Origin: Dehalococcoidia bacterium | Lineage (GTDB): Bacteria; Chloroflexota; Dehalococcoidia; UBA6926 | Length of the DNA stretch: 64,000 nt | NCBI GenBank assembly: GCA_965207895.1 | Contig: CBDBNN010000003.1 | Coordinates: 1,027,755 to 1,091,754, forward strand | Direction: 5' to 3' | Shown: piece after piece, positions 5,172-62,760 of the stretch | How positions within the stretch are numbered: the stretch's first letter is position 1 | How the letters are laid out: each line of letters starts with the position of its first letter | Notes under the pieces: generated by a model | The model's database searches: none | Seen by the model: the letters and a program-made list of their open reading frames with translations, nothing else | Told to the model about the DNA's origin: nothing | Made by a program: the position numbers and the translations under genes

Positions 5172-5209
5172 GGCGGACTAAAGAGACGCGCAAAGCGAGG
5201 GACGGAAAC

Positions 5210-5527
5210 ATGGCGACAGCAGAACAACAAGGGCACGCGGAAGATCATCCGACTCCCCGCACCTACGTCAACGTCGCGATTATCCTTTCGATTATCACGA
5301 TCATTGAGGTGGCCATCGTCATCGTTGAAGTGCCCTCCGTCATTCTCATTTCATCGTTGCTTGCCTTGTCTGCCGTCAAGTTCGCATTTGTCGTCGGGTG
5401 GTTCATGCATCTCAAGTTCGATGCGAAACTGTACCAGGCGCTTTTCCTTGGTGGCCTATTCCTGGCGATAGCAGTATTGTTGGCGCTGGTGGCGCTCTTT
5501 GAAAACTTCACTCTGCCTGCCGCGTAA
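5210..5527 (+). CDS. ctaF: Cytochrome c oxidase subunit IV (prokaryotic CtaF/CoxD-like)
   Basis: ~100-aa, 3-TM protein immediately after ctaE. TYVNVAIILSIITIIEV resembles bacterial subunit IV. Confidence 0.65.
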   Translation: MATAEQQGHAEDHPTPRTYVNVAIILSIITIIEVAIVIVEVPSVILISSLLALSAVKFAFVVGWFMHLKFDAKLYQALFLGGLFLAIAVLLALVALFENFTLPAA

Positions 5528-5570
5528 AGGCTGAGCGTAAATACTGAGACACGAGAATAGCGGAGCAGAA

Positions 5571-5846
5571 ATGGCGCATAACGACGAACAGGCCGAGACA
5601 AACAACTTGATGGATCGGCTGATCGTGCCGATTATGTTGCCGGTTGTCGCCCTCATCGTCACTATCGCGCTGATTGTTGGCATCGGTCTTCTCCTGTACG
5701 CCGTCATCCCGCATGACTACGTCAAGCTGGCCGGCGAGAAAGTCTACTACTCCGTCCCTGTCGCGCTTGGGCTTGCCCTCTTCTTCCTCCTGGGCTTTGC
5801 TTTTCTGGCGTCCTTGGCGAAGGACGACAGCGGCGACTCCCAGTAG
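5571..5846 (+). CDS. Small 2-TM membrane protein of unknown function inside the oxidase operon
   Basis: ORF with two hydrophobic helices between ctaF and ctaG. No motif recognised. Confidence 0.45.
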   Translation: MAHNDEQAETNNLMDRLIVPIMLPVVALIVTIALIVGIGLLLYAVIPHDYVKLAGEKVYYSVPVALGLALFFLLGFAFLASLAKDDSGDSQ

Positions 5847-5939
5847 TTCGTCGCCGCTGATTCACGGCGGCCCAACTGCTTTGTACATTCAGAGCGCTCC
5901 TGCATCCGCAACGCGCCGAAAAGGGCGTAGGATTGCGGC

Positions 5940-6830
5940 ATGAATGACCTTGGTGATTATCTGCTTGCGTGGTCGTGGGAGCCGCTGACGCTATTCTTCG
6001 TCGGCCTCCTAGGGATTGCCTACGTCAGGGGACTGCGAGGCCTTAACCCGATTAAGGTTCGTGTCGTTACCAACTGGCGCGCCGCGTCCTTTGCAGCCGG
6101 CCTGCTGTTGCTGCTCCTCGCGCTCATCTCGCCAATAGACGCGCTGGGCGGCCGACTGTTCGCCTTTCACATGGCGCAGCACATGCTCCTGATGCACGTT
6201 GCCGTGCCGCTTATTCTGCTCGGAGCGCCGGTCCTGCCTGTTGCCCGCGGCATGGGATACGGAATCCGTCGCCTCACCCTCATCAAGCTGGCGAGAGCCC
6301 CTCAAGTGCGTTTCGTATTCCACATCCTTATCCATCCTCTGGTTGGCTTGGCGGTCTTCGTGGGTGTTATCTGGTCATGGCATGTCCCGGGAGCCTATGC
6401 CGCCGCCGTCACTAACGATTTCGCCCACATCGGCCAGCACGCCAGCTTCATAACTGCGGCAACACTTTTCTGGTGGGCCATCATCGACCCGACGCCCATC
6501 CGTGGCAAGATTCCCTACCTCGGAAGGCTCGTCGTTGTTGTTATGGCGCTGTCCCTGACATTCCCGCTGGCTGCAATGCTGACATTCGCAGCTGCGCCCT
6601 GGTATGAGCCGTACATCGGCCAGGAACCGCTGTGGGGCATCGACGCGATGACCGATCAGCAGATTGGCGGACTCATCATGTGGGTTGGCGGCATTGCGCC
6701 GTATTTCCTCGCGATTGCCGGCCTGTTTATCGTTGCCGTGCAACGTGATGAAGAAGACACGCGCCGCTCGCGTGCCGCCCTCTACAAGAATCCGCCGAAT
6801 CATGCGCCGCATAGGCCGGCGACCACGTGA
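5940..6830 (+). CDS. ctaG: Putative caa3-type oxidase assembly factor CtaG (Caa3_CtaG family) multi-pass membrane protein
   Basis: 7-TM protein with an HMAQHMLLMHVAVPLILLGAP motif, in the position ctaG occupies in Bacillus-type caa3 operons. Confidence 0.55.
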   Translation: MNDLGDYLLAWSWEPLTLFFVGLLGIAYVRGLRGLNPIKVRVVTNWRAASFAAGLLLLLLALISPIDALGGRLFAFHMAQHMLLMHVAVPLILLGAPVLPVARGMGYGIRRLTLIKLARAPQVRFVFHILIHPLVGLAVFVGVIWSWHVPGAYAAAVTNDFAHIGQHASFITAATLFWWAIIDPTPIRGKIPYLGRLVVVVMALSLTFPLAAMLTFAAAPWYEPYIGQEPLWGIDAMTDQQIGGLIMWVGGIAPYFLAIAGLFIVAVQRDEEDTRRSRAALYKNPPNHAPHRPATT

Positions 6831-8731
6831 TGTCCAACATGTCTCACAGTACTGACCTGCGCTACCGCAAGACTCTGCTGGGACTTGCGTTGGCGGCGGC
6901 AATAACAACCGTCTTTCTGATCAGCTTGGGCAGCTTCGTGCGTGTCACTGGCTCCGGCCTCGCCTGCCCGGACTGGCCGCTGTGCCACGGCAGCATCATC
7001 CCGCCCTTCGAGTACCACGTCCTCATCGAGTACTCCCACCGCCTGACGGCGGCCATTGTTGGACTACTCGTTGCCGCGATGTTCGTCGTGGCGTTTCTCG
7101 CGTCACGAGCCGATGAACAGCCAACACGTCGCGCGCTTATCCCCGCCGCGATCACGCTCGTCGTCATGCTCACACAGGCGGGACTGGGCGGCGTGGCCGT
7201 CATCACAGAACTCCCGCCGCCAATTGTGACGCTGCACCTCTTTCTTGCCGAGGCCATCTTGGCCTTGCTCATCGTGACGATGATGGCCGCCGCGCCCGGG
7301 CAGGCGGCGCCCGCAGGAGGGCAGGGAATCTCTCTTGCTGACGCGCGCAAGCTCTATCTTTGGGCCATCATCGCTGCCGTCATGACCTTGGTGATGATTC
7401 TCTCCGGTTCATATGTCGTCGCGGAAGAGGCCACGCTTGCATGCGGCAGTGGATTCTCCGCATGGCCGCTGTGCGACGGCGCGATCATGCCGAGTGGGTT
7501 CGATCCGAATATCCACATGGGGCATCGCTACATGGTTGTCATCGGAACCCTGACCACCGGCTACGTCGCATTCCTCTCATGGCGGCAGAAGGAGCGGCAT
7601 CGCATGATCAGCCGTGTGGGGCAGGCCACACTTCACCTGCTTGCTGTGCAGATCATCGTCGGCGCGCTTGTGCCGTGGACGGAGTTCCACCATGCCGCGC
7701 GTGTTGCACACATCACACTTGCCTCGGTGACCTGGGCCGCCGCCGTGCTCCTCGTGATTCTTGCTGCGCGAGCGCGGGCCGGACCGGCTGAGGATGAGTC
7801 ATCAGGCCGATACACCCAGATGCCCCCCGCTCCTGCCGGCGGCGCGGATATCGCGCAGACCTCTACGCTCAGAGTGGTAGCCTCCGACTACTTCTGGCTG
7901 ACCAAGCCGCGCGTCATGGTCCTTCTGCTGCTGACGGCCTTGGGGGGCATGGTGTTCGCCGCGCAAGGGCTTCCGAACGCGACCGTCGCAGTTGCGGTCC
8001 TGTTGGGCGGCGCTTTCGCGTCCGGCGGCGCGGGAGCCATCAATCACGGCCTTGAAGGCGGGATCGATGCATCGATGTACCGTACGCGACACAGGCCTGT
8101 GGCAAGTGGGCGCGTCACACGGCGGCAGGCAATCGCATACGGCATAATCCTCAACGTGCTGGCATTCGCCGTCCTTGCGGCAGGCGCGAACGTGCTAGCC
8201 GCCTCGTTGGCCATCAGCGGGTCGTTGTTCTATGTGTTCGTATACACGCTGTGGTTGAAGAACACCACTGTGCAGAACATCGTGATCGGTGGGGCCGCGG
8301 GCTCGGTGCCGCCGGTTGTCGGATGGGCCGGCGTGACCGGAGAAGTGGGCCTGCCGGCGATCTACCTGTTCCTCATCATCTTCTTCTGGACGCCGCCGCA
8401 CTTCTGGGCGCTGGCCCTAATGATCAAGGACGACTACGAACGGGCGAGTGTGCCCATGATGCCGGTCGTTCTGGGAGAGGAGAACACACGCGTCGCAATA
8501 TTCCTCTATACGATTCTGGTCAGTATCCTCGCCCTGCTGCTGTACTTGTCCACACCGCGCCTGAGTGAACTGTATCTCTTGGGGGCGATGGCTGTAGGCG
8601 CAATCTTCACCTACTACGCACTGCGCCTGCTCAGGGAAAAGGACCGCGCCGCCGCCCTGCGCCTCTACAAGTTCTCTCTGTTATACCTGGCCCTGCTATT
8701 CCTCGCAGTAATGATCGACCAGGTTGTGTAG
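6830..8731 (+). CDS. ctaAB: Fusion of heme A synthase (CtaA/COX15-like, N-terminal) and protoheme IX farnesyltransferase (heme O synthase CtaB/CyoE, C-terminal)
   Basis: N-terminal GSGLACPDWPLCHG cysteine-loop motif and His-rich TM pairs of CtaA. C-terminal GGAAGSVPPVVGW...FFWTPPHFWALAL motifs of the UbiA superfamily CtaB. The GTG/ATG start overlaps the ctaG stop. Confidence 0.85.
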   Translation: MSNMSHSTDLRYRKTLLGLALAAAITTVFLISLGSFVRVTGSGLACPDWPLCHGSIIPPFEYHVLIEYSHRLTAAIVGLLVAAMFVVAFLASRADEQPTRRALIPAAITLVVMLTQAGLGGVAVITELPPPIVTLHLFLAEAILALLIVTMMAAAPGQAAPAGGQGISLADARKLYLWAIIAAVMTLVMILSGSYVVAEEATLACGSGFSAWPLCDGAIMPSGFDPNIHMGHRYMVVIGTLTTGYVAFLSWRQKERHRMISRVGQATLHLLAVQIIVGALVPWTEFHHAARVAHITLASVTWAAAVLLVILAARARAGPAEDESSGRYTQMPPAPAGGADIAQTSTLRVVASDYFWLTKPRVMVLLLLTALGGMVFAAQGLPNATVAVAVLLGGAFASGGAGAINHGLEGGIDASMYRTRHRPVASGRVTRRQAIAYGIILNVLAFAVLAAGANVLAASLAISGSLFYVFVYTLWLKNTTVQNIVIGGAAGSVPPVVGWAGVTGEVGLPAIYLFLIIFFWTPPHFWALALMIKDDYERASVPMMPVVLGEENTRVAIFLYTILVSILALLLYLSTPRLSELYLLGAMAVGAIFTYYALRLLREKDRAAALRLYKFSLLYLALLFLAVMIDQVV

Positions 8732-8739
8732 GGAACCAC

Positions 8740-8945
8740 TCAGCCCCTCCGTCATTCCCGCGAAAGCGGGAATCCAGTGCGGCGCACAGTGCCGCCGCAC
8801 TGTCATTCTGAGCGTAGCGAAGAATCTAAAATCTCCATTGCGCCGCTCATCCTGAGCTTGTCGAAGGGCATGAGCGGGGACGCTCTCGCCTCATTCCGGC
8901 GAAAGCCGGAATCCATCGGGACTCTCCTCTTCGGACTATGTGGTA
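8740..8945. repeat. Cluster of composite intergenic repeat modules (A: gtcattcccgcgaaagcgggaatccagtg; C: gtcattc(c/t)gagcg(c/t)agcgaagaatc; B: ctca(t/c)cctgagcttgtcgaaggg; A': cattccggcgaaagccggaatccatcggg)
   Basis: The same modules recur at >10 intergenic loci in this window. Track ORF 8777..9013 lies wholly inside the cluster and is rejected. Confidence 0.8.
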
Positions 8946-33067: not shown

Positions 33068-33435
33068 GATCCCCCCTCCCTGAGGGAGAGGGTTAGGGTG
33101 AGGGGGTGTCTCTCCCTCGTCATTCCGAGCGCAGTCGAGGAATCCAAAGACTCATCTGACAAGCATGCTGGAACGCGGCAAGCCTGTTTCTTCTTCAGAC
33201 AAGGCAAGACCGCGAACTTAAGCCGTAGCGCAGCTACCCGTTCGCCCTGAGCGTAGTCGAAGAGGGCTCCCGAACGGGGACTTGGCCCACCGTCATTCCC
33301 TCGAAAGCATGTCCCGTGCTCCGATACGGGGCGGGAATCCAGTGCCGCCCACGGGGCGGCCTCGAAATCCCCTCTCCTTCAGGGAGAGGGTTAGGGTGAG
33401 GGGGTGCCCCCCCGCATGCCTTCGCTGAGACGGCT
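33068..33435. repeat. Large composite repeat cluster (modules D, C, B, A-variant, D)
   Basis: cccctccctgagggagagggttagggtgaggggg occurs twice, plus gtcattccgagcgcagtcgaggaatc, gttcgccctgagcgtagtcgaagagggctcccgaacgggga, and gtcattccctcgaaagcatgtcccgtgctccgatacggggcgggaatccagtgccgccc. Confidence 0.85.
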
Positions 33436-37904: not shown

Positions 37905-38120
37905 CCCCTCATTCCGGCGAAAGCCGGAATCCATCGGGATACCCTCCCCCTCGCAACCACCGTCACCCCCGCGCAGGCGGGGGCAGGGTGGGGGTGAAGA
38001 GAGAATCCCCTCCCCCTCGATGGGGGAGGGCTAGGGTGGGGGTGACGGCAACGTCATTCCGAGCGTAGCCGAGGAACCTAAAGTCGTATCTGGTTACCAA
38101 GTTGGAACGCGGCACCACAA
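37905..38120. repeat. Composite repeat cluster (A'-variant, D-variants, C-variant)
   Basis: cattccggcgaaagccggaatccatcggga, cccctccccctcgatgggggagggctagggtgggggtga, gtcattccgagcgtagccgaggaacctaaag. Confidence 0.8.
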
Positions 38121-39260: not shown

Positions 39261-39962
39261 TCATCCTGACTGCAATGGAGATTGGCTGACTTCAACGTGA
39301 ACAATCCTACGTTCATCTGGACGAATTGAATCTGGGAAAGAAGTGCGGGGTATTGGCAAACTTGCTACGTAATTATGGTGTGCGCTGTTGTAGAAGTTGC
39401 GCAGAACGAAATCCACGAATTTGGTCGGTGTCAGCGGAGAACTTACTGGAATCCTGCAGTTTCGGTATTGTCCGAGAGTCAGATGTACTCTTGGGTGTAA
39501 CGATTCTGGTGGTCCCTGATCTGCCAAGTTATAGTCGAATCTCAAAGGAACAGGGACCACATTGCTTGCCACCACTTCCGCGAAGACCACGTTATTGATA
39601 TAGATGTCAGGATTAGCTTGGAACTCATGAAGATATGGGGAAGGGAAGAAAGCGAGGCGGTGACTTATGAGCCGACTTCCGTCGTATCGATAAAGCATCT
39701 GTAGCAGACCACCGTCAAGCATCTTGACGTTGTAAGCCCTCGATGCAACTAGCTGATCATAGATAACCTCGTACTCTTGGTTGTGAAGTGCAACACTTAT
39801 ATGTTCGGAACCTTCAAAGCTTATCTCTAGGAACCCATCATTTAGCCGCCGTTCGAACGGAAAGCTTTGATCATCTGCTAGACTTTCAACAATCAAGAAT
39901 CTAATGATTCCAGTGATCTCGGCTTTCGTTTCGTTTGCGGTGGCCATGACATTAGTCGTCAA
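39261..39962 (-). CDS. Hypothetical protein, 233 aa, no recognisable domain. Partner gene of the NERD-helicase (11-nt overlap)
   Basis: ORF in a low-GC context. Its start overlaps the stop of the upstream helicase gene. Confidence 0.55.
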   Translation of the reverse strand: MTTNVMATANETKAEITGIIRFLIVESLADDQSFPFERRLNDGFLEISFEGSEHISVALHNQEYEVIYDQLVASRAYNVKMLDGGLLQMLYRYDGSRLISHRLAFFPSPYLHEFQANPDIYINNVVFAEVVASNVVPVPLRFDYNLADQGPPESLHPRVHLTLGQYRNCRIPVSSPLTPTKFVDFVLRNFYNSAHHNYVASLPIPRTSFPDSIRPDERRIVHVEVSQSPLQSG

Positions 39963-42144
39963 GCAGTTCTCTTAGCTTCAGAACGTCCATTTTGTCCAAG
40001 TCCTCCGTCCGCATCTCCCCAGATTCAAGGCTCTCTATGAGCTCTGCAAATCTCCGCCGCCCACCTTCCAGACGCCGCTTCTCCGACTTTGTCATATCTC
40101 GGTGAACGATCTTGAGGCGCTCCCGTAATGTTGCCCCCGGATACACAAAATCCAACTCAAAGTCTCTTTTTCGGAGTTCCTCATATTCTTTCATGAGAGG
40201 CTGCATGCGATTTCCGAAACCGACCACTCGAATCCAAGCTTTACTTCGTGTAATCGCAGTGAAAAGACGATTACGCACTGTTGCTAGATTTATCGCAGAT
40301 GTCGTGCAATCTTGGGCATTGATGATGTAGACCATTCCAGCCTCGTTCCCTTTAGCGCGAAAGATCCCAGTAAATGTTACGGAGGGCGTGCCGGACATAT
40401 AGAATACGTCTGGATCTGTGTCTACACCCGCAATATGCGACTGAATACCCATATCCGCTAGCATTGCTCTTATGGGCCCTACGTTTGCTCGGGTCGAAGT
40501 AGGGTCTGGATTGATGACGACAATGTCGTCATGGCGCAACTCTTCATCCTCAATATTGGCCTTAATCTGAGTTGCCACCCATTCAGCCTGCTCCGCATCG
40601 CTTTCAAAAACTTTGAACTGAAGCAAGTCACTCAGGTCTGAGTGATCCTCAAGGAATCTAGGACTAGTCGTTTCATCACGTTGCAAAACAACCGGTTCGT
40701 TGTCTGCGAGCCGCCCTTCTCGAACCCTGTAGCCCACGTCCTCCCACAAGTTTGCATTGTCGAACATTTGAATTAAGCCGGTGTCAGCTCCAGTCGGTGC
40801 CTCCCGATAGATACCGAACCCGAGGGCATGGGCAGTTACGAGCAGTGGACGTGAGTTCCTGTAACACTTCCGCAAAATGATGTCAGCGCTGTCAGGCTCG
40901 TTACTCGCCTGTACTCGACCGTTACCTGATGCTGCCTCTGGCATATCTTCAAATATTCTCTCTGGTGACGGCAACGATTCGTCCCTGAGATTCTGCAACT
41001 CGTCATAAGCATAGACCAGCCGCTTAGGCTCTCTCAGGAAAGCATGGCATAGTCTGAGAAATGCTGGCGAGAAGTCTTGTGCCTCGTCAATGAGAATGGC
41101 GTCGTACTGAGGGCGTAATTCCTCCGCTTGGCTAAGTGCCAATGCGCAGGCCTTCGAAAAGGTGTCTTGCGCTCCTAAAGTTCGCCTCGCAGATTGGAAG
41201 TCAAAATAGGATAAACCGTGAGTATGGCAGAACTCAAAATATATGCCATCGCGTCTATTGGCGCCAGGAGCACCCCAAGCATTCACTATGCGAAGTTGGT
41301 CCCAATTCGGTTCTTCATTTGTTTGTTGAAGGAAAAAGGATGCGATTAGTCTCTGAAAAAGTGCCTTTAGAGATCTTGTGTTGAACGTAACAGCGATCCG
41401 CCAGTCTGGGTGCTGGGCATGCAAATATGCTGCCTTTCGGGCGAGAACGATGGTCTTCCCTGACCCTGCAAGCCCTCTGATTCGTTGGACGCCCTCCACA
41501 GTTTCGACAACTGCCTTGCGTTGCATTCCATCCAGGGCAGCAATCGAACCCTCTAGCTGCTTTAACCTAGCACCCCTAGAATCGGGCGATTCTGCAGGCC
41601 GCTTGGTCCTCGTTTGACGGATAGCTGACGTGCTGTCAATTGCTGCGAGCGTGGCCTCGAACAAATCAGCCCGTTCCCATGTGGCTCCACTGGCAGTTAA
41701 CTTGCTACCCAAATCCTGTGCGTTAGCTATCGGATAGCCTTTCGTTCCGCTATCTGGCGACATATCTACCGCAGGAGCAAAAGATATTACCTCTATTGGA
41801 ACGAGGAGTTCTCGATGTTCCACAAGCTCTCGCTGTAGTTTCAATTTCGATTCCAACTTGTTGTAAGAATCATCTTGCAATGCTTCGTATCCCTGAAGGT
41901 CGGTGCCCTCTATAAGGCAAATTATGGTCACGCCTGTCTCTCTAGTGACTAGTAGCCCGTCGATTACATGCGGACCTTCGCTCGTTGCCACTATTGGGTA
42001 GCCAACAAGCAGGAGGCCGCTAAGGCCTTCAAGGTCGGTTACAATGCTCGCCAAGACGCTTGAGGAGGCAGGTTTATTGCTTGTACCCCTTACGACTTCT
42101 ATGCTCACAGCTTCACCCCAGAACGCTATGGTGCTTGCCTCCAC
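39952..42144 (-). CDS. Fusion of an N-terminal NERD-like/PD-(D/E)xK-like nuclease domain with an SF1 (UvrD/DUF2075-like) helicase/ATPase. Nhi-like architecture
   Basis: N-terminal LLLVGYPIV...HVIDGLLVTRETGVTIICLIEG resembles NERD. Walker A GLAGSGKT, Walker B ILIDEAQDF, YRNS, FRAKGNEAGMVYI and TAITRSKAW motifs of the SF1/DUF2075 type. Start codon uncertain (GTG at 42144). Confidence 0.7.
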   Translation of the reverse strand: MEASTIAFWGEAVSIEVVRGTSNKPASSSVLASIVTDLEGLSGLLLVGYPIVATSEGPHVIDGLLVTRETGVTIICLIEGTDLQGYEALQDDSYNKLESKLKLQRELVEHRELLVPIEVISFAPAVDMSPDSGTKGYPIANAQDLGSKLTASGATWERADLFEATLAAIDSTSAIRQTRTKRPAESPDSRGARLKQLEGSIAALDGMQRKAVVETVEGVQRIRGLAGSGKTIVLARKAAYLHAQHPDWRIAVTFNTRSLKALFQRLIASFFLQQTNEEPNWDQLRIVNAWGAPGANRRDGIYFEFCHTHGLSYFDFQSARRTLGAQDTFSKACALALSQAEELRPQYDAILIDEAQDFSPAFLRLCHAFLREPKRLVYAYDELQNLRDESLPSPERIFEDMPEAASGNGRVQASNEPDSADIILRKCYRNSRPLLVTAHALGFGIYREAPTGADTGLIQMFDNANLWEDVGYRVREGRLADNEPVVLQRDETTSPRFLEDHSDLSDLLQFKVFESDAEQAEWVATQIKANIEDEELRHDDIVVINPDPTSTRANVGPIRAMLADMGIQSHIAGVDTDPDVFYMSGTPSVTFTGIFRAKGNEAGMVYIINAQDCTTSAINLATVRNRLFTAITRSKAWIRVVGFGNRMQPLMKEYEELRKRDFELDFVYPGATLRERLKIVHRDMTKSEKRRLEGGRRRFAELIESLESGEMRTEDLDKMDVLKLRELLDD

Positions 42145-45715: not shown

Positions 45716-45830
45716 AGCATTCCCCTCATTCCGACGAAAGCATGCCCCGTACTCCGATACGGGGCCGGAATCCATCGGGACAATCCCCTCCCCCTTGATG
45801 GGGGAGGGTTGGGGTGGGGGTGAACACAAA
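45716..45830. repeat. Composite repeat (A-variant + D-variant)
   Basis: cattccgacgaaagcatgccccgtactccgatacggggccggaatccatcggga...cccctcccccttgatgggggagggttggggtgggggtga. Confidence 0.8.
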
Positions 45831-46465: not shown

Positions 46466-46855
46466 ATGCCAAAGACCATCTACCTCGCAAACCCCTACGG
46501 CTTCTCTCGACAACAGCGGGCCCTCCTCCTGCCGCCGATCGTTGCCGCCCTCGAGGAACTGGGCCTTGAGGTCTGGGAGCCCTTCTTACGCAACAATCAG
46601 GTCGACTTCTCACAGGAGGGATGGGCCTACCAGGTGGGGCAGCTCGACTACAGCGACGTGGCTGAGAGCGACGCCATCTTTGCCGTCGTCAACGGCGTCC
46701 CGCCGGACGAGGGCGTCATGATCGAACTGGGGATGGCCATAGCGCTAAAGAAACCAACCTTCCTGTTCCGCGACGACTTCCGACGAGCCAGCGAAAGCGA
46801 TCAATACCCGCTGAACCTCATGCTCTTCACCGGACTACCCGAAAAGGGCTGGTAG
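46466..46855 (+). CDS. Nucleoside 2-deoxyribosyltransferase family protein
   Basis: IYLANPYGFS...GVMIELGMA motif pattern of the family. The gene is bracketed by repeat clusters on both sides. Confidence 0.75.
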   Translation: MPKTIYLANPYGFSRQQRALLLPPIVAALEELGLEVWEPFLRNNQVDFSQEGWAYQVGQLDYSDVAESDAIFAVVNGVPPDEGVMIELGMAIALKKPTFLFRDDFRRASESDQYPLNLMLFTGLPEKGW

Positions 46856-46924: not shown

Positions 46925-47100
46925 CCCTAACACGAACCACATCGTCATTCCCACGAAAGCATGTCCCGTACCCCGATACGGGGCGGGAATCCAGTGCCGC
47001 CCCCAGGGCGGCCAATCCCCTCTCCCTGAGGGAGAGGGCTAGGGTGAGGGGGTATGTCATTCCGAGCGCAGCAGAGGAATCTAAAGCCTGCTTCTCAAGG
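46925..47100. repeat. Composite repeat cluster (A-variant, D, C)
   Basis: gtcattcccacgaaagcatgtcccgtaccccgatacggggcgggaatccagtgccgccc, cccctctccctgagggagagggctagggtgaggggg, gtcattccgagcgcagcagaggaatctaaag. Confidence 0.8.
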
Positions 47101-47386
47101 CCTCTCGCACTAACGCTGCAGCACCTCTGCCGTCTATTCCGAAATATCCGATTGCCCGCAACCGACCAAAGCGCGTGTCACTGCGAATCTCTTCCTTTTC
47201 CCTTTCGTCCATGTCCGAATAGGCGAGGATTTCATCCACTGTCATTTTGTCCATGTCATCCGAAGACAGGAGCATGAACTTTACGATGGCCTCATGATGT
47301 GGATCGTACTCGGCTGTCCATTTCGGGCGAGGCGTCTGGAATCTCCGCTTGATGGACTGTATGAGCGCGACGACGATCTTCGCCAT
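47081..47386 (-). CDS. Hypothetical protein (101 aa), divergent from the methyltransferase gene
   Basis: AAGGAAGGGG RBS before ATG 47386. The track N-terminal extension is rejected. Confidence 0.4.
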   Translation of the reverse strand: MAKIVVALIQSIKRRFQTPRPKWTAEYDPHHEAIVKFMLLSSDDMDKMTVDEILAYSDMDEREKEEIRSDTRFGRLRAIGYFGIDGRGAAALVREALRSRL

Positions 47387-47477
47387 TTTCTGGCCCCTTC
47401 CTTGAGTAACGTGATACATATATTCTAAGCATTTCGTGCGCGGATGGCTTCGCCCCCCATCCCCTACAATTAACCCT

Positions 47478-49130
47478 ATGACCACCCCAACCCCACCCAC
47501 CAACTGGAAAAACAAGCTCTACTTCGGCGATAACCTCCCCATCATGCGGGAGCACATCCCGGACGAGTCCGTCGATCTCATCTACCTCGATCCTCCCTTC
47601 AACTCCAACGCCACCTACAACGTCCTCTTCCGCGAGCACGATTCCTCAGAGTCCGCCGCCCAGATACAGGCATTCGACGATACCTGGCACTGGAGCACGG
47701 ACGCTGAATGGCATTACGAGCGGGTCGTCACCACCGGCCCGCGCAAACTCGCGGACATGCTCCAGGCCATGCGCACATTCCTCGGCCAGAACGACATGAT
47801 GGCCTACCTCACCATGATGGCCCCGCGCATGGTGGAGCTACATCGCGTCCTCAAGCCCACCGGCAGCATCTATCTCCACTGTGACCCCACCGCCAGCCAC
47901 TACCTCAAGCTCCTCATGGACGCCGTGTTTGGGCAACAGAGCTTCCGCAATGAGATTATTTGGAAGCGCCAGAGCGCCCATAGTGACGCCCGTGGATTCG
48001 GCTCGGTCCACGATACTTTGCTGTTCTACGTAAAGTCCGATGAGTTTATGTGGAATCCTACTTTCCAGCCTTACGAGCAGGAATACGTCGACAACTACTA
48101 CCGATACAAAGACGACGATGGCCGCCGATTCATGTCAGGTGACTTAGGTGCTGCTGGACTCCAAGGTGGCGGCTATGAATATGAATGGAAAGGTGTTACG
48201 AGAGTTTGGCGCGTTCCTATTGAGACCATGGAACGATTGGATTCAGAAGGGCGAGTCTTCTACACAAGGAATGGAATACCAAGAATCAAGCGTTATCTTG
48301 ATGAATCGCAGGGTAATCCGATTCAGGATGTCGTTACGGACATTCAATCCCTGCGGTCGTGGCACGATGAACGCCTCGGTTACCCCACCCAGAAACCCGA
48401 GGCGCTACTAGAGCGCGTCATCTCCGCCTCCAGCAACGAGGGCGACGTCGTCCTTGACCCGTTCTGCGGCTGCGGCACCGCCGTCGCCGTCGCGGAGCGC
48501 CTGAACCGCAAGTGGATCGGCATCGATGTCACCCATCTGGCCATCTCGCTCATGCGCAGCCGCCTGCGCGACTCGTTCGGCGATGACCTGTCCGACTACG
48601 AGGTCGTCGGTTCCCCCGCGGACGCTGAGAGCGCCCGCGCCCTCTCGCTTGAGGGCGGCAACACTGGCCGCTACCAGTTCGAATACTGGGCGCTCGGCCT
48701 TGTCGAGGCGCGCCCCGCGCGCGATATGAAGAAGGGCGCGGACGCCGGCATCGACGGCTACATCAACTTCTTTGATGACAACTCCGGCAAGGCAAAGACC
48801 GTCATCGTCCAGGTCAAGAGCGGTAACGTGGGCCGCAACGTCATCGCCACTCTCAAGGGCGACATGGATCGCGAGAATGCAGAGATGGGTCTGCTAATCA
48901 CCTTGCAGCCACCCACCGGCCCCATGCTCAATGAGGCCACATCCGCCGGATTCTACACGCCGGAGGCATACCCTGATCGCCAATTCCCGCGCGTCCAGAT
49001 CGCCACCATCGACGACATCCTCAACGGCAACGGCCCCGCGATACCGCAGCTCGGCCTCTCCCAGGCCCCCACCTTCCGCCGCGCCCCCCGCCGCCGCAGA
49101 ACACAAGGCCGCTCCGAACGAATGCTGTAG
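47478..49130 (+). CDS. DNA methyltransferase (beta-class N6-adenine/N4-cytosine, DPPF motif IV before motif I) fused to a C-terminal Mrr-cat-like restriction endonuclease domain
   Basis: Motif IV IYLDPPFNS. Motif I VVLDPFCGCGTAVAVAERL. C-terminal GADAGIDGYINFF...KTVIVQVKSGNVG matches the Mrr catalytic-domain pattern (D...D/QxK). Confidence 0.85.
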   Translation: MTTPTPPTNWKNKLYFGDNLPIMREHIPDESVDLIYLDPPFNSNATYNVLFREHDSSESAAQIQAFDDTWHWSTDAEWHYERVVTTGPRKLADMLQAMRTFLGQNDMMAYLTMMAPRMVELHRVLKPTGSIYLHCDPTASHYLKLLMDAVFGQQSFRNEIIWKRQSAHSDARGFGSVHDTLLFYVKSDEFMWNPTFQPYEQEYVDNYYRYKDDDGRRFMSGDLGAAGLQGGGYEYEWKGVTRVWRVPIETMERLDSEGRVFYTRNGIPRIKRYLDESQGNPIQDVVTDIQSLRSWHDERLGYPTQKPEALLERVISASSNEGDVVLDPFCGCGTAVAVAERLNRKWIGIDVTHLAISLMRSRLRDSFGDDLSDYEVVGSPADAESARALSLEGGNTGRYQFEYWALGLVEARPARDMKKGADAGIDGYINFFDDNSGKAKTVIVQVKSGNVGRNVIATLKGDMDRENAEMGLLITLQPPTGPMLNEATSAGFYTPEAYPDRQFPRVQIATIDDILNGNGPAIPQLGLSQAPTFRRAPRRRRTQGRSERML

Positions 49131-56467: not shown

Positions 56468-57121
56468 CTAATAAATGTGCCGCTGTACAGAAGTGGCGAC
56501 GAACTGCTCAATGTCCATGATCGCCTGCGTGGTGGCCTGACCTACGAGGTCCAGCCTGCGCACCTGCTCGATGCGTTCGGCGGCGCTATTCAACTCGCGG
56601 CGTGACAACATGCCGCGCAGAATTCCACACGCGTCTGTCAGGCTCAACAAGACGATGTCACGCGGATCGGGGATCTCATCGCTAAAAAGGATACTCATCA
56701 GGCGCAGGCGCACTTCCCGCTCTTCCTTGCCGTCAACCATGGGATAACGGCGCGACTGAAATACCCAGAGAAAGCGATCATCCTTGCGTTCCAGAATGCC
56801 TCCATCGACTAGGCGATTTAGCGCTTCCTCACGGATTTCAGCTGCGCGGTTAGCAGTATGTTCAACCCAATAGCGCGCGTTCCGTTCTTCACCCGCAGCT
56901 ATGTCTGCCAACGTCGGGTCCAACAGCGAATCGTCAAGCGGCGAGGAATCTACCAGCACCAATCGCTCAAGGTCTGTGTCGATACGATTCTCCAGCGCAA
57001 GATCCATCAAGACGGCACCGGCCAGGGCATAGTCCATAGACCAGCTTGGCACGCGCGCGAATCGACCGTCATCGTCGTTCAAAAGGAGTAGAATGATCTC
57101 TTCAGCGAAACGTAGCGGCAT
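56468..57121 (-). CDS. GPP34/GOLPH3-like family protein
   Basis: N-terminal AEEIILLLLNDDDGRF and overall helical pattern resemble bacterial GPP34 homologs. Confidence 0.55.
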   Translation of the reverse strand: MPLRFAEEIILLLLNDDDGRFARVPSWSMDYALAGAVLMDLALENRIDTDLERLVLVDSSPLDDSLLDPTLADIAAGEERNARYWVEHTANRAAEIREEALNRLVDGGILERKDDRFLWVFQSRRYPMVDGKEEREVRLRLMSILFSDEIPDPRDIVLLSLTDACGILRGMLSRRELNSAAERIEQVRRLDLVGQATTQAIMDIEQFVATSVQRHIY

Positions 57122-57678: not shown

Positions 57679-60600
57679 GTGGTTTCCGGGTTCAGGCAAT
57701 TCACGCGGGTTCTTGCTAATCCCGCAGCGGTCTCATCGTTGCTGGTCATGGCTGGAGTGCTCTCAAGCCTAGCTCTGTATATCGTTCTTGAAGAAACCGC
57801 TTTAGCGCAGTCGCTCACTGCACAGCAGTCTCTCGCTATCGAAGGTCCTACAGCTATTGAGTTTCCTGAGAACAGTGGTGAGGCCATCGCCACGTATCGA
57901 GTGACGAATGCTACGCCTGGCTCGATAATCTCCTGGTCAATTGATGGCGCTGATGCCAGAAGGCTGTCCATAGATGGTTCCGGCGTCTTGCGTTTCAAGG
58001 CGGCCAGGAACTTCGAGGAGCCGAATGATGGAAACCGTGACAACGAGTACGAGATTGATTTATCAGCAAGCGATGGATCAACTCAAGTCTCGGTTGAGGT
58101 GGCCGTCATGATTACGGATGTTAATGAGTCGCCGGCTTTTGAACTCGAAAGCGCGGAATTCTCAGTAGAGGAAAACGCATCCGCCAATCGACGTGTGGGT
58201 GGTGCACTCGCGGTTATAGACCCCGATGACGGCGACTTGATGACGTTCTCATTGGAAGGAGAAAATGCAGACCCGTTCCATATTGACGCCGAAGGGCAGA
58301 TTCGTGTGCGCCCGGGTGCCATCCTCGACTACGAGACCTCAGGCATTCTGAGTTTCACCGCTCGTGTAACAGATCAGGATGGCCTGAGTGTTTCATTGCC
58401 TGTTCAGATAGCCCTAACCGATGCAGACGATCCGGGGATCGTTACCTTCTTGTCTGCCCGGCCGTTTGTTGGAGTGCCGCTCACGGCGATGGTTTCCGAT
58501 CAGGATGGTGTTACTGGTCGAATCCGATGGAGATGGTATCGAGCCACGAACACTAACGATGAATTCGAGCGAATTGATGGAGCGACTGGGATCTCGTATA
58601 CGCCAATGGATGATGACGAGGGATACATCTTGCGCGTGACGGTTTCGTACGAGGACAACTTCGAAGTAGGGGCTTCAGCTTCGCAAATCAGCGAGAAAGT
58701 TGGCAGAAACGCTGCGCCTCAGTTTGAATCGGCGTCCATCACTCTGACGGTTCCGGAGGGCGCGCCTGCCGGAACGGATGTTGGCAAACCTGTTACAGCG
58801 ACGGACAGTGATGATCACGATCTTACCTACGCTCTTTCAGGAGAGGATGCGTCTTACTTTGAGGTCAACGTTTCAACCGGACAGATTAGAGTTGGCGCGC
58901 AGGCGCTGCCAGATTCAGAGACGAAGGCCAGCTACACAATGATTGTTACTGCGACGGATGAGGCGAGGGCGGCAGCGTCCGTCACGGTGATAATTACAGC
59001 AAGAGTTTCAAATACTCCGTCCGTCATCATCGGTCCGGCCACTGTCAGCTACGCAGAGAACGGCACGGCGTCTGTGGCAATGTACACGACCACTGACCTA
59101 GAGGGCGATGGAATTATTTGGGGCATTGAAGGAACTGACGCGGCGCGATTCACGATAAACGTTGCGGGCGAGCTGATATTCAATTCGCCGCCAGACTATG
59201 AGAAACCGCGTGATGCCAACATGGACAACGTGTACGAACTCACGGCGACGGCGTCGGACGGAAACCTCACCGCCGAACTGAATGTTGAAGTCGCTGTGAC
59301 GAACGTCAATGAGGCAGTCATCATCACCGGCTCCGCATCCGTCACTTACGCGGAGAACGATACTACAGCAGTCGTAGTGTATTCCGCTATCGACTCGGAT
59401 GGAGACAGAATCACGTGGGATGTTGTGGGAACGGACGCGGATTGGTTCTCGATCAGCCAAGTAGGAGAGCTAACATTCAACTCGCCGCCGGACTATGAAA
59501 AACCGCGAGACGCCAACAATGACAACGTCTATAAGGTGTCCGTGACGGCGTCGGACGGCAATCTTGAGTCTACGCTGAACGTGGAAGTTACCGTCACGGA
59601 TGTCGTTGAGGCTAGCGCCATCACCGGTCCTGCAACTGTCAGCTACGCGGAGAATGGCATGGCGTCTGTGGCAATGTACACGACCAGTGATCCGAATGGA
59701 GACAGAATCACGTGGGACATTGCCGGAGTGGACGCGCCGCGATTCTCGATCGAGCCAACGGGTGAGCTGACGTTCAAGTCGGCACCGGACTACGAGAAGC
59801 CGCGTGATGCCAACAAGGATAACGTCTATAAGGTGATGATTACCGCGTCGGATGGGAACGTCACGGCCAGATTGGATGTTGAAGTCAGCGTCAGCAACGT
59901 CAATGAGGCCGCCTTGATCGATGGTGCGACGTCTGTTAGCTATCCGGAGAACAGCATCGTATCAGTGGCAATCTACTCGGCCACGGATCCGGATGGAGAT
60001 GAAATCACGTGGGATGTTGCGGGAACGGACGCGTCGCGGTTCTCGATCAAAGCAACGGGAGGATTGACGTTCAAGTCCACGCCGGACTATGAAAATCCGA
60101 ATGATGCCAACAACGACAATGTGTACGAACTGACAGTGACGGCGTCTGACGGCAATCTTGAATCCACCCTGGACGTGGAAGTTAATGTCACGAACATCGA
60201 TGAGTCCACCGTCATCACCGGCCCCGCAACTGTCAGCTACGCGGAGAATGGCATGGCACCTGTGGCACTTTACACGACCACTGATCCGAATGGAGACGGA
60301 ATCACGTGGAACATTGCCGGAGTGGACGCACCGCGATTCTCGATCGAGCCAACGGGTGAGTTGACGTTCAAGTCGGCACCGGACTATGAGAAACCGCGAG
60401 ATGCCAACAAGGACAACGTGTACGAAGTGACGGTAACAGCGACGGACGGCAACCTTGAGTCTACGCTGGACATTGAAGTTACTGTCGCGAACGCCAACGA
60501 GCCTGTGACTATCACCGGCTCCGCGTCCGTCACGTATGCAGAGAACAACGCCACGGCTGTAGCCGTGTATTCCGCTACGGACCCGGATGGCGACGGAATC

Positions 60601-62760
60601 ATGTGGGGCGTGGCAGGTGCGGATGTGGCACGGTTTGAGGTCAGCGAGACGGGCGAGTTGTCATTCAATTCCACGCCGGACTACGAGAATCCGAACGATG
60701 CCAACAAAGACAACGTCTATGAGGTAACGATCGCAGCGTCGGACGGGACCCTCGCCACCGAACTGGATATTGAAGTTATCGTTACGAACGTTAATGAGGC
60801 CGCCATCATCACTGGTCCCGCCACTGTCACTTATGCGGAGAACGGCGTGGCGTCTGTGGCAACGTACACGGCGACGGACCCGGATGGAGAGGCCATCATA
60901 TGGGATGTTGCGGGCAGTGATGCGGCCCATTTCGCAATTGACAGTCAAGGCAGGCTGGCCTTTGTAAGCCCCCCCAACTTTGAAAATCCTCTCGATGCGG
61001 ATGCTGACAACACGTATTTGCTTCAGATTGTCGTGAATGACAGCGGCAACGAAAGCAGTCTGGATATGGTCGTCGAGGTCGCGGATGCCAATGACGCGCC
61101 ACGCTTCCCGACTGCCGGCATCGTTGCAGAGATTCCGGAGAATTCATGCCCGGGCACTGACATCGTAGACCGTGGTATTCGAGGTGATCTGGACATTGCA
61201 GCGGACGAGGATGGCGACCCCCTCACCTATGCGCTGTCCGGGTCAGATGCACGGCACTTCGTGATTCATCCGCCCACCGGCTATGTAACGCTCGGCCCTG
61301 GCGCACTTCTGGATTTCGAGACCTCGCAAGAACCATTCCTGCTGCGTGTGTCCGTTTCAGATGGACGTGACGATTTCGGGAATGCTGAGAGCGAATTCAG
61401 TGCGGACGATTACCTCGATCTCACGGTGGTAATCAGTGATGTCGATGAGCCACCGGTCTTTACTGAAACCCAACTCATTCTGGACGCTTGCGGCACCTCA
61501 GTGGGACATGAGCCTGACCAGCTACGGAGGGTGGTAACGTCCGGCGCTCGCGGTGGAAGTCGCGTGGGAGCGGCACTCTCAGTGAAAGACCCCGAGGGGG
61601 ATCCTGTCCATTTCAGGATTGTCAGCCAATCGGATCAGGGGGCCTTCATCGTCGATTCAAAGACTGGGCAGATTATGGTTGCGCCCGGTTTCTCGCCAAG
61701 AGACGCCCGGCGTGTCTATACACTCCGTGTCGCCGCAATGGATGGTGAGTTGGAGTCCCTCATTGAAGTCCGTATCGCCGTACTGAAAGCGCCAAAACCT
61801 GCGCCTGAACCTGATGTAGAGGATTCGTCTACACCCAACCAGGAATCTGCTGACGATGCTGAGGCGCCAACACCCGTGCAAAGCGATGAGATTTCGGGCG
61901 TTTCATCAGCCCGTGGCGAGAATGCCGCACACTCTGCCCCCACGCCTAACACTCTTAACCGGCCACCCGTGAATCTCAAACTAATTGAGCCCACATTTGT
62001 TCATGTGCAACACGCAGTACAGATACCGCTCTTTGGCAGTTCAGAAGCGCAGGACCAGAGTGGCCGTGCCCGGCTGACTGCCCTTCCTGGCGCGCTCGCA
62101 GTCCCATACCAGGTTCGACTGACGCAGGATGACGCTGCGTGCGGCAGTCTGACTCAGACTGCCGCATCTCTGAAATGTGTCTGTGTTTCTGTGGAGTTCT
62201 TTGATGTGGTAGGCGAACCCTTGGCAGATGGATTCCTCAATCGCCCGGCGTTGCTCGAGATTGTCCTGAGAACGCAGGACGAGACTGGGAACTCTGAAAG
62301 TGGAGATCAGCGTTTCGAAATCGGCCAGGACTCTGTTGAAATGAGGATGAGGCAAGATGATGAGCAGAAGTGGGGATATATGCACGCAAGCTTGAGAGAA
62401 CCGGCAGACGGCTCGGCAGTCCTGATGACACGGGTGAGATCGCCAGGGCAGTACATGGCGCTGGTGACTGAATCCGGAAGTGAAAGAGAGGCCCCTGCCA
62501 GCGCAGCACCCATGGATTTTGTGAAGACCGCGGTTGCCCGGCAGGCACAGAACACGGTCACGAATAACACCCAGGAGCGCACAGCATCGTTTGTTTACGA
62601 ATCCGTCGCTGTTCATCCTCAATCACAACCGACGCCAATCGTTTCTGCAGAACCTCAGGTATGGCGCATGGCACGTCTACTGATTGCGCTACTATTGGAC
62701 GTGACGGTTGCGCTTTCCGCCGGCATCTTTCTTCAACGCATTACTTTCCAGCGGCAATAG
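57679..62760 (+). CDS. Giant secreted adhesin with >10 tandem cadherin-like repeat domains and a C-terminal hydrophobic anchor
   Basis: Signal peptide ending in an AXA site. Repeated ~100-aa units carry ITGPATVSYAENG...FNSPPDYEKPRDANKDNVY...ASDGNL...V(T/S)NVNE, with DxNDxPxF linkers (DVNESPAF, DANDAPRF, DVDEPPVF). Confidence 0.8.
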   Translation: MVSGFRQFTRVLANPAAVSSLLVMAGVLSSLALYIVLEETALAQSLTAQQSLAIEGPTAIEFPENSGEAIATYRVTNATPGSIISWSIDGADARRLSIDGSGVLRFKAARNFEEPNDGNRDNEYEIDLSASDGSTQVSVEVAVMITDVNESPAFELESAEFSVEENASANRRVGGALAVIDPDDGDLMTFSLEGENADPFHIDAEGQIRVRPGAILDYETSGILSFTARVTDQDGLSVSLPVQIALTDADDPGIVTFLSARPFVGVPLTAMVSDQDGVTGRIRWRWYRATNTNDEFERIDGATGISYTPMDDDEGYILRVTVSYEDNFEVGASASQISEKVGRNAAPQFESASITLTVPEGAPAGTDVGKPVTATDSDDHDLTYALSGEDASYFEVNVSTGQIRVGAQALPDSETKASYTMIVTATDEARAAASVTVIITARVSNTPSVIIGPATVSYAENGTASVAMYTTTDLEGDGIIWGIEGTDAARFTINVAGELIFNSPPDYEKPRDANMDNVYELTATASDGNLTAELNVEVAVTNVNEAVIITGSASVTYAENDTTAVVVYSAIDSDGDRITWDVVGTDADWFSISQVGELTFNSPPDYEKPRDANNDNVYKVSVTASDGNLESTLNVEVTVTDVVEASAITGPATVSYAENGMASVAMYTTSDPNGDRITWDIAGVDAPRFSIEPTGELTFKSAPDYEKPRDANKDNVYKVMITASDGNVTARLDVEVSVSNVNEAALIDGATSVSYPENSIVSVAIYSATDPDGDEITWDVAGTDASRFSIKATGGLTFKSTPDYENPNDANNDNVYELTVTASDGNLESTLDVEVNVTNIDESTVITGPATVSYAENGMAPVALYTTTDPNGDGITWNIAGVDAPRFSIEPTGELTFKSAPDYEKPRDANKDNVYEVTVTATDGNLESTLDIEVTVANANEPVTITGSASVTYAENNATAVAVYSATDPDGDGIMWGVAGADVARFEVSETGELSFNSTPDYENPNDANKDNVYEVTIAASDGTLATELDIEVIVTNVNEAAIITGPATVTYAENGVASVATYTATDPDGEAIIWDVAGSDAAHFAIDSQGRLAFVSPPNFENPLDADADNTYLLQIVVNDSGNESSLDMVVEVADANDAPRFPTAGIVAEIPENSCPGTDIVDRGIRGDLDIAADEDGDPLTYALSGSDARHFVIHPPTGYVTLGPGALLDFETSQEPFLLRVSVSDGRDDFGNAESEFSADDYLDLTVVISDVDEPPVFTETQLILDACGTSVGHEPDQLRRVVTSGARGGSRVGAALSVKDPEGDPVHFRIVSQSDQGAFIVDSKTGQIMVAPGFSPRDARRVYTLRVAAMDGELESLIEVRIAVLKAPKPAPEPDVEDSSTPNQESADDAEAPTPVQSDEISGVSSARGENAAHSAPTPNTLNRPPVNLKLIEPTFVHVQHAVQIPLFGSSEAQDQSGRARLTALPGALAVPYQVRLTQDDAACGSLTQTAASLKCVCVSVEFFDVVGEPLADGFLNRPALLEIVLRTQDETGNSESGDQRFEIGQDSVEMRMRQDDEQKWGYMHASLREPADGSAVLMTRVRSPGQYMALVTESGSEREAPASAAPMDFVKTAVARQAQNTVTNNTQERTASFVYESVAVHPQSQPTPIVSAEPQVWRMARLLIALLLDVTVALSAGIFLQRITFQRQ

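Follow-up and report, generated by a model that had tools for sequence, protein, structure and literature searches.

A 64,000-nucleotide stretch of contig CBDBNN010000003.1 from a Dehalococcoidia bacterium (assembly GCA_965207895.1, positions 1,027,755 to 1,091,754 of the forward strand; the whole stretch is called the window below) carries a gene that joins a Mod-like DNA methyltransferase to an Mrr-type nuclease domain in a single chain. We propose, with a probability of roughly 0.55, that this fusion is a self-contained, ATP-independent single-chain restriction-modification (R-M) enzyme, which would follow the logic of Type IIC enzymes with an unusual build. A sequence-only reading of the same DNA had offered a self-contained R-M enzyme as one of two possibilities. 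That part of it is favoured because the fusion is obligate, because no partner gene accompanies it and because its recognition region diversifies in the manner of a cassette; cleavage itself is predicted. Other observations point in the same direction: both predicted catalytic centres are intact and co-conserved, the nuclease fold matches that of active nucleases, selection acts on the nuclease domain, the methyltransferase part is closest to Type III Mod subunits, and the gene is mobile, with surroundings of a kind typical for defence (toxin-antitoxin genes, a phage integrase gene and a Helicase and DUF2290 gene pair). A broader proposal, which we hold more tentatively and a little short of an even chance, is that the fusion represents a large, unrecognised class of ATP-independent single-chain R-M enzymes derived from Type III Mod, with an Mrr-type nuclease in cis and a specificity reprogrammed by exchange of cassettes. 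Such a class would be abundant in uncultured Chloroflexota, would also be found on actinophages and plasmids, and would be labelled by current tools as plain or orphan methyltransferases.

The open reading frame (ORF) lies on the forward strand, starts at either 47436 (GTG) or 47478 (ATG) and ends at 49130. The ATG agrees with the N-termini of the homologues and gives a protein of 550 residues, with the following layout:

47478..49130, + strand: complete coding sequence of the methyltransferase-nuclease fusion (550 residues plus stop), from the ORF list, Pfam domains and homologue starts
47478..47987, + strand: N-terminal lobe of the methyltransferase (residues 1-170), with catalytic motif IV and a conserved helical region; Pfam N6_N4_Mtase, mean pairwise identity 0.73 in 76 members
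47589..47600, + strand: motif IV, DPPF (residues 38-41), the form typical of N6-adenine beta-class enzymes; invariant in 76/76 members
47988..48362, + strand: hypervariable central region (residues 171-295), putative target-recognition domain; from identity, synonymous divergence (dS) and paralogue boundaries
48363..48587, + strand: C-terminal lobe of the methyltransferase (residues 296-370); Pfam, and PDB sequence matches to M.BceJIV, CcrM and RsrI over residues 286-379
48456..48482, + strand: motif I, DPFCGCGTA (residues 327-335), which binds S-adenosylmethionine (SAM); conserved in 75-76 of 76 members
48588..48671, + strand: linker between methyltransferase and nuclease (residues 371-398); conservation lower (0.58), short helices in AlphaFold2 (AF2) models
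48672..49022, + strand: Mrr-type PD-(D/E)xK nuclease domain (residues 399-515); Pfam, AF2 model, Foldseek, hhalign and the ratio of nonsynonymous to synonymous divergence (dN/dS)
48735..48758, + strand: GADAGIDG loop (residues 420-427), in which D422 and D426 correspond to Mrr D199 and D203; hhalign
48810..48818, + strand: QVK (residues 445-447), corresponding to Mrr Q219-A-K221, the 'QxK' half of the PD-QxK site; hhalign
49023..49127, + strand: basic C-terminal tail (residues 516-550, ...TFRRAPRRRR...); predicted local distance difference test (pLDDT) score below 50 in the models

The protein exceeds the cut-offs of PF01555 (N6_N4_Mtase, residues 32-352, E 5.8e-45, 154.4 bits against a cut-off of 26.7), PF04471 (Mrr_cat, residues 399-480, E 7.6e-9, 36.1 bits against 21) and PF22722 (NA-iREase1, residues 418-488, 33.4 bits against 27), the last of which overlaps Mrr_cat. 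With NCBIfam and PADLOC, matches were obtained only to adenine, Type II or Type III methyltransferase models. Within the C-terminal tail, close homologues conserve T532, F533, R534 and R538 to 90% or more, and this basic segment may contact DNA.

Motif IV (DPPF, residues 38-41) is followed in the protein by the recognition region and then by motif I (FCGCG, residues 329-333), an order that defines the beta class. The sequence-only reading had called beta-class motifs in this order, and both DPPF and DPFCGCGTA were found at the expected coordinates. DPPF and FCGCGT are invariant among 76 family members drawn from related loci. In sequence searches of the PDB, the matches of the methyltransferase part were to beta-class enzymes throughout; the motif blocks are matched by M.BceJIV, CcrM, RsrI and MboIIA, and a Helicobacter Mod subunit (6k0w) is collinear with the fusion protein over residues 11-344. 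Matches to the MTase_III models of PADLOC reach 5e-45. The full-length AlphaFold model is of moderate quality (pLDDT 65, predicted template modelling score, pTM, 0.55), and its best Foldseek matches are Type III Mod proteins, namely EcoP15I Mod (4zcf, 1e-17), 6k0w (6e-15) and Mbo45V Mod (1e-9). We conclude that the N-terminal 370 residues are a Mod-like (Type III-type, beta-class) SAM-dependent methyltransferase. The modification is probably N6-adenine methylation, because the protein has the DPPF motif and because its nearest characterised relatives are all N6-methyladenine (m6A) enzymes; M.BceJIV, CcrM, Mod, RsrI and MboIIA, all of this kind, match more strongly than N4-cytosine enzymes do.

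Residues 371-550 were modelled alone with AF2 (pTM 0.75, core pLDDT 85-95). The core of the model has the order alpha-beta-beta-alpha-beta-alpha-beta, as in PD-(D/E)xK nucleases, and the top Foldseek matches are the catalytic domains of AspBHI (4oc8) and MspJI (4f0q/4f0p), with probability 1.0 and E 3-5e-3, followed by BamHI, EcoO109I and the N-domain of RPB5 of eukaryotic RNA polymerases. When the domain was compared with the PDB by sequence, either as a single sequence or as a 32-sequence profile, only chance matches were found. Alignment of the same 32-sequence profile with E. coli K-12 Mrr by hhalign gave a probability of 86.7% and an E-value of 4.4e-6, and placed E402, D422, D426, Q445 and K447 of the fusion protein on E172, D199, D203, Q219 and K221 of Mrr, respectively. 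The catalytic mutant of Mrr is D203A (PMC5435990), and the site of MspJI has been termed "PD-QxK" in a 2025 review (PMC12707154). The Mrr catalytic pattern that the sequence-only reading had seen at the C-terminus is thus borne out: Mrr_cat is above its cut-off, GADAGIDG and QVK are present, and the D..(E/Q)xK triad that it proposed to align, here D426, Q445 and K447, falls on D203, Q219 and K221.

D422, D426 and K447 are invariant across the 76 members; E402 is found in 74 of them and Q445 in 72, the other four having S at this position. The D, D and K are also kept by all of 75 more distant representatives of the C-terminal domain (31-59% identity). DPPF, FxGxG and D..D..(Q/S)xK occur together in 76/76, 57/59 and 24/25 full-length members of three sets. 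We compared the window gene with nine relatives and found a dN/dS of 0.06-0.21 for the nuclease domain and of 0.09-0.19 for the methyltransferase lobes. The strength of purifying selection is therefore the same for the nuclease domain and the methyltransferase core, which indicates that the former is maintained and is not decaying. Mean pairwise identity among the 76 members is 0.73-0.79 for the methyltransferase lobes and 0.68 for the nuclease domain. We conclude that the predicted nuclease site is intact, because its catalytic residues align onto E172, D199, D203, Q219 and K221 of Mrr, and that these residues are under purifying selection. The second possibility raised by the sequence-only reading, a methyltransferase with an inactivated nuclease fold, is disfavoured by the intact aligned site, by the invariance of D422, D426 and K447 in about 150 members and by this selection.

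The central region of the methyltransferase behaves differently from the rest of the protein. Residues 171-295 have a mean pairwise identity of 0.34 among the 76 sequences, which fall into 34 recognition-region types, and identity in this region is uncorrelated with identity in the core (r = 0.10). The recognition region of the window protein, for example, is 73% identical to that of a copy from Gemmobacter, and the core of the same copy is 57% identical. Between paralogues in the same genome, the cores are 80-94% identical and the recognition regions 20-50%. dS is saturated in residues 171-295, against 0.3-0.8 in the flanks. Two of the five paralogue pairs are the clearest: both flanks have nucleotide identities of 0.90-0.98, which drop to 0.32-0.58 over codons ~150-300, with sharp boundaries; the remaining three pairs show a similar central drop with less uniform flanks. 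Judged from these alignments, the pattern is that of a central region replaced by recombination with homogenised flanks. Type III mod alleles, like Type I specificity genes, are known for a recognition domain that is swapped between conserved flanks. Conserved orphan methyltransferases are unlike the fusion family in this respect, since the recognition region of the latter is hypervariable and exchanged. The five two-copy sets with near-identical flanks and different cassettes are found at loci L001/L002, L021/L037, L010/L033, L009/L036 and L024/L069 of our collection; the L001/L002 paralogues, on OZ241912.1, are ~25 kb apart and inverted relative to each other. An arrangement of two paralogues could allow recombinational switching of specificity.

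A partner gene was sought by calling and clustering the ORFs of 80 related loci together with the window. The fusion was the sole family common to 79 of the 81 loci; the next families, found in 10 loci at most, were generic metabolic paralogues, and neighbours lay on either strand at equal frequency. No res gene (superfamily 2 helicase-nuclease) was found in the flanks of the window, and no conserved neighbour was found in the 80 related loci. Nor does a separate restriction endonuclease (REase) gene adjoin the fusion in the window, where the flanking genes are a 101-residue hypothetical and a gene of the formate-dehydrogenase family, just as the sequence-only reading had described. The same reading had called the gene an orphan. 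The term holds in that there is no partner gene; it would mislead if a housekeeping enzyme of the CcrM or Dam type were meant.

The family is large. A word-indexed protein search returned at least 8000 matches to the fusion protein, and the best 120 of these were 68-100% identical and had the same three Pfam domains in all cases. A scan of one genome per species returned at least 591 relatives, mainly from metagenome-assembled genomes of Dehalococcoidia, SAR202 and other Chloroflexota, with scattered relatives in Latescibacterota, Desulfobacterales, Nitrospirales, Bacillota, Armatimonadota and Gemmobacter; among the relatives listed, five genomes had two copies each. With the C-terminal domain as the query, 1997 clusters at 50% identity were found. 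The methyltransferase domain was also present in 63 of 75 longer representatives of the C-terminal domain, and the remainder were apparently truncated gene calls, suggesting that this Mrr subtype is essentially always joined to this methyltransferase. We considered whether the short representatives were stand-alone Mrr-like proteins and rejected this, as they begin inside the linker and have junk tails, and are gene fragments. The homologues are annotated as "DNA methyltransferase" or near variants of it ("DNA methylase", "methyltransferase"). The fusion is ancient and widespread.

Full-length homologues that are 43-48% identical, nuclease domain included, are also found on plasmids and in Streptomyces phages. 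The plasmid carriers are Mesorhizobium japonicum MAFF303099, Microbacterium, Bradyrhizobium, Rhizobium, Sinorhizobium and Cellulosimicrobium, and the plasmid copies adjoin toxin-antitoxin and partition genes. At least 28 Streptomyces phages have a full-length homologue. In the one phage examined, the temperate Likavirus Ejemplo, it is gene 47 (locus L086, 4971-6626), which lies between the serine integrase and ribonucleotide reductase genes and retains the E..D..D..SxK residues. On the Cellulosimicrobium cellulans plasmid pTL2A (locus L083, 4822-5769), a 315-residue Mrr_cat protein annotated as a restriction endonuclease is encoded directly upstream of the fusion. As a single case, this stand-alone Mrr-type REase was rejected as a partner.

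A copy at locus L085, on another contig, encodes a protein 95% identical to that of the window at an unrelated locus, inside a pgk-tpi glycolytic cluster, and the two loci share a single segment:

47454..49103, + strand: gene-sized cassette, the sole DNA common to the window and the L085 copy (blastn, 91.9% nucleotide identity)

Upstream of each copy lies a small ORF, and these two ORFs are unrelated. We conclude that the gene moves as a gene-sized cassette among chromosomes, plasmids and temperate phages. At L085, phosphoglycerate kinase is called as three consecutive fragments of 130, 181 and 79 residues (4824-6025), reflecting a pseudogene or an assembly frameshift, and a gene for a 106-residue HTH_3/HI1420-type antitoxin-like protein (8610-8930) follows the methyltransferase gene.

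If the fusion is an R-M enzyme, its mode of action may be pictured as follows. The methyltransferase and recognition module would bind a short target, probably in the dimeric form of other beta-class and Mod enzymes, with the hypervariable region setting the sequence specificity of both methylation and cleavage. Sites in the host would be methylated by the enzyme. On unmethylated incoming DNA, two nuclease domains would meet and cleave close by, in the manner of Type IIS, Type IIG and MspJI-type enzymes. Two things would keep self-toxicity low, the competition of cleavage with methylation and the requirement for assembly, both of which have been proposed as means of control for Type IIC enzymes (PMC12707154). 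Exchange of recognition cassettes between paralogues would reprogram the specificity. We infer cleavage, its dependence on methylation state, m6A chemistry and oligomeric state from the sequence and the models built on it.

Several points weigh against an R-M enzyme. In the literature searched, we found no data on cleavage, restriction or methylation for any member. The similarity of the nuclease domain to known nucleases is moderate (Foldseek E ~3e-3, hhalign probability 86.7%), and residues 415-423, which form the catalytic loop, have low confidence in the models. In the 75 distant representatives, the helix position equivalent to E402 is Q in 55 and E in 20, and the strand position equivalent to Q445 is S in 42 and Q in 33, so that in many of them the obvious catalytic residues are reduced to D, D and K. 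The NA-iREase1 model, which is named "inactive", passes its Pfam threshold on the nuclease domain. PADLOC labels the fusion protein MTase_II, MTase_III or orphan methyltransferase, and a fused R-M model is absent among its 25 best matches, which are all methyltransferase models. Carriage by phages is equally compatible with a purely protective methyltransferase. Finally, the characterised single-chain R-M enzymes are, to our knowledge, all reversed in layout, with an N-terminal nuclease and a gamma-class methyltransferase.

Two of these points can be followed further. Active enzymes such as Cfr10I and NgoMIV are known to have an SxK site whose acidic residue comes from a following helix. R465-E466 is almost invariant in the 75 distant representatives, and E466 could supply the acidic residue in the members with SxK. 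As for NA-iREase1, the 'inactive' REase of NACHT proteins, its model matches all 75 distant representatives and Mrr_cat matches 74 of them. No NACHT domain was found in the fusion protein by Pfam, and the equivalents of Mrr D199, D203 and K221 are retained and invariant. We did not find, in the literature searched, which residues the authors of the family deem lost in NA-iREase1.

The alternative that survives best, although we consider it unlikely, is that the protein is a methyltransferase only, in which the Mrr-like domain does not cut and is an accessory that helps with DNA binding or dimerisation, and the role is either to shield hosts and mobile elements against the restriction systems of others or epigenetic. 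A precedent is CcrM, a dimeric beta-class enzyme that depends on a C-terminal DNA-binding domain acting in trans; the non-target strand is gripped by this domain of one protomer, and methylation needs it (PMC6787082). The "inactive" Pfam model and the replacement of the canonical helix E and strand Q/E by Q and S in many distant members would suit such an accessory, as would database annotations that give only "DNA methyltransferase"; an anti-restriction methyltransferase would also fit a gene that phages and conjugative plasmids carry. However, the equivalents of Mrr D199, D203 and K221 are invariant in ~150 sequences down to ~31% overall identity, and such strict conservation of acidic residues is unexpected on a purely phosphate-binding surface. 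The CcrM domain also differs in fold, being SAND/PWWP-like; it was rejected as a homologue of the nuclease domain and serves as an analogy only. Moreover, the conserved orphan methyltransferases do not resemble a family with hypervariable, swapped recognition domains and several paralogues in one genome.

R-M genes can behave selfishly, and the gene might mainly be a mobile or addiction element that acts by post-segregational killing or by break-induced, homing-like insertion, with host defence being secondary. The gene-sized cassette at unrelated loci with no common flanks, the patchy spread across phyla, plasmids and phages, and the position of the plasmid copies among toxin-antitoxin and partition genes are in line with this. 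However, no target-site duplications, terminal repeats or empty sites were identified for the cassette; an empty site was sought through relatives of the downstream formate-dehydrogenase-like gene in metagenome contigs, and none of 80 loci was syntenic with the flanks of the window. The diversification of the recognition domain indicates selection on target specificity, and a selfish element would require the same biochemistry as the R-M enzyme and is compatible with it. We regard an element that is mainly selfish as improbable.

Least probable is a modification-dependent (Type IV-like) nuclease that cuts foreign-methylated DNA and uses its methyltransferase as a reader or for a different self-mark, a role suggested by the name of the Mrr_cat family, by the modification dependence of the closest structural neighbours (MspJI, AspBHI and Mrr) and by the separate Mrr-type REase gene that adjoins the fusion on the Cellulosimicrobium plasmid; yet Mrr and MspJI sense modification with an N-terminal domain of its own, a winged helix or SRA, which the fusion lacks, its methyltransferase motifs are intact and invariant, as expected of an enzyme and not of a degenerate reader, and cleaving its own methylation product would be lethal. 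The "modification-dependent module" that the sequence-only reading had also entertained therefore finds no support, Mrr_cat being a cleavage module only.

Turning to the surroundings of the R-M candidate in the window, the 101-residue ORF (47081-47386, minus strand) lies upstream and is divergent from it. Neither Pfam nor PADLOC matches it and the 80 related loci lack a homologue, for which reasons it was rejected as a partner; it may be a spurious ORF or an orphan confined to the lineage. The downstream neighbour is a 406-residue gene of the 2-hydroxyacid/formate-dehydrogenase family. Farther upstream lie a gene of the nucleoside 2-deoxyribosyltransferase family, KsgA and IspE. The first of these (46466-46855, plus strand) encodes a 129-residue protein (Pfam E 1.3e-26) immediately upstream of the cassette region; a relative turned up at just one of the 80 related loci, and a link with the methyltransferase gene is therefore improbable. 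Around the fusion gene, no sigma-70-like promoter was recognised.

In four of the 80 related loci, a protein of 443-453 residues, with ~63% identity between copies, is encoded directly downstream of the fusion and convergent with it:

L014 7654-8985, - strand: 443-453-residue protein
L024 7759-9096, - strand: 443-453-residue protein
L040 6417-7778, - strand: 443-453-residue protein
L076 7639-8982, - strand: 443-453-residue protein

No Pfam or PADLOC family was found for it. Being too rare and without a known family, it was rejected as a partner; it could be an accessory gene that is present only occasionally, or a passenger mobilised along with the fusion.

About 5 kb upstream of the fusion, on the minus strand (39261-42144), a 729-residue UvrD-like helicase and a 227-residue DUF2290 protein are encoded in a segment with a GC content of ~0.505, against ~0.60 in its flanks. 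They match the paired PADLOC models 'Helicase' (E ~1e-294, full length) and 'DUF2290' (E 7e-84), and look like a horizontally acquired candidate defence pair.

The intergenic regions contain a dispersed GC-rich repeat with the core CCCTCACCCTARCCCTCTCCC, present in 5 copies against 0.04 expected. This repeat family, which is REP/MITE-like, occupies the following positions:

33084-33104, 33382-33402 and 38022-38042: GC-rich repeat
45726-45820 and 46945-47050: longer composite repeats, with 49-nt and 31-nt direct repeats of 90-92% identity
46274-46325: further member of the family
L085 6034-6085: further member, at the locus of the 95%-identical copy

The composite repeats flank the deoxyribosyltransferase gene and lie just upstream of the 101-residue ORF, and a 52-bp piece of the repeat recurs beside the L085 copy. 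Elsewhere in the window, a 1693-residue protein with at least five cadherin repeats (57679-62760, plus strand; Pfam E 7.5e-58) is encoded beside a GPP34-family protein (56468-57121, minus strand), both in a stretch with a GC content of 0.51-0.57.

A fusion of a methyltransferase with a nuclease would not as such surprise a specialist; what makes this family a worthwhile target is that it is large, mis-annotated, built with modular recognition cassettes and present on phages and plasmids. If the nuclease is active, thousands of genes annotated as plain methyltransferases would be complete one-gene restriction systems, and estimates of R-M content would shift in the Chloroflexota and other uncultured groups, in which these genes are common and often duplicated. 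A group of Streptomyces phages and rhizobial and actinobacterial plasmids would gain a gene for defence or exclusion, and the conserved core with its swappable recognition cassette would be a natural modular scaffold for new specificities. The family would also represent a second, independent route to single-chain R-M, one that began with Type III Mod instead of Type I-like gamma methyltransferases. Should the nuclease be inactive, the family would still be a clear case of a nuclease fold retained as an obligatory accessory of a methyltransferase. Our literature search, which did not extend to REBASE, found no publication on this fusion, and papers on Synechocystis, Haloferax, the Lake Biwa metaepigenome, adenine methylation and bNACHT, together with a PD-(D/E)xK survey, yielded nothing further on it.

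Among known systems, Mrr, MspJI and AspBHI share with the fusion the nuclease fold and the E..D-x-G-x-D..QxK configuration. These enzymes have N-terminal readers of modified DNA and no methyltransferase, and they cut modified DNA, whereas the fusion carries an active-looking methyltransferase; in its N-terminal part only methyltransferase models match by Pfam, and no winged-helix or SRA sensor was found there. Enzymes of the CcrM type resemble the fusion in combining a beta-class adenine methyltransferase with a C-terminal domain on a short linker, which makes a dimer model plausible. CcrM's C-terminal domain, however, is beta-rich and SAND/PWWP-like, has no nuclease motifs, and is absent among the listed Foldseek matches of the C-terminus of the fusion. 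CcrM has one conserved specificity within a lineage. In the fusion family, recognition is swapped, there are up to two paralogues per genome, and even a 95%-identical copy lies at an unrelated locus, none of which fits an orphan of the CcrM or Dam type. A parallel in design is the fusion of a Shedu nuclease with N6_N4_MTase, which has been proposed to be equivalent to a Type II R-M system (bioRxiv 10.1101/2023.08.10.552793). Like the protein described here, it combines an N6_N4_MTase with a nuclease of the PD-(D/E)xK superfamily and is likewise a prediction only; it differs in that its nuclease is of the Shedu/DUF4263 family.

The Type III Mod proteins (EcoP15I, H. pylori, Mbo45V) provide the best structural and sequence matches for residues 11-370 of the fusion. 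They have the same order of motif IV, recognition domain and motif I, a DPPF/Y motif and a swapped central recognition domain, as in the mod alleles. Type III systems have a Res partner gene, whereas the fusion has no adjacent Res, its nuclease is fused directly and it lacks an ATPase motor. The Type IIC/IIG enzymes (MmeI, BpuSI, Eco57I, the Tth111II/TspDTI family and the Type IIB enzymes BcgI and TstI) are like the fusion in having a methyltransferase and a PD-(D/E)xK nuclease in one chain, with no partner gene and with one recognition module that presumably serves both activities. Their control by assembly and by competition between methylation and cleavage (PMC12707154) would be expected in the fusion too. 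The difference lies in the layout: in the characterised Type IIC/IIG enzymes, the nuclease is N-terminal, a gamma-class (N6_Mtase/Eco57I-type) methyltransferase comes next and the recognition domain is C-terminal, whereas in the fusion a beta-class, Mod-like methyltransferase comes first, the recognition region is internal to it, and a nuclease of the Mrr subtype comes last.

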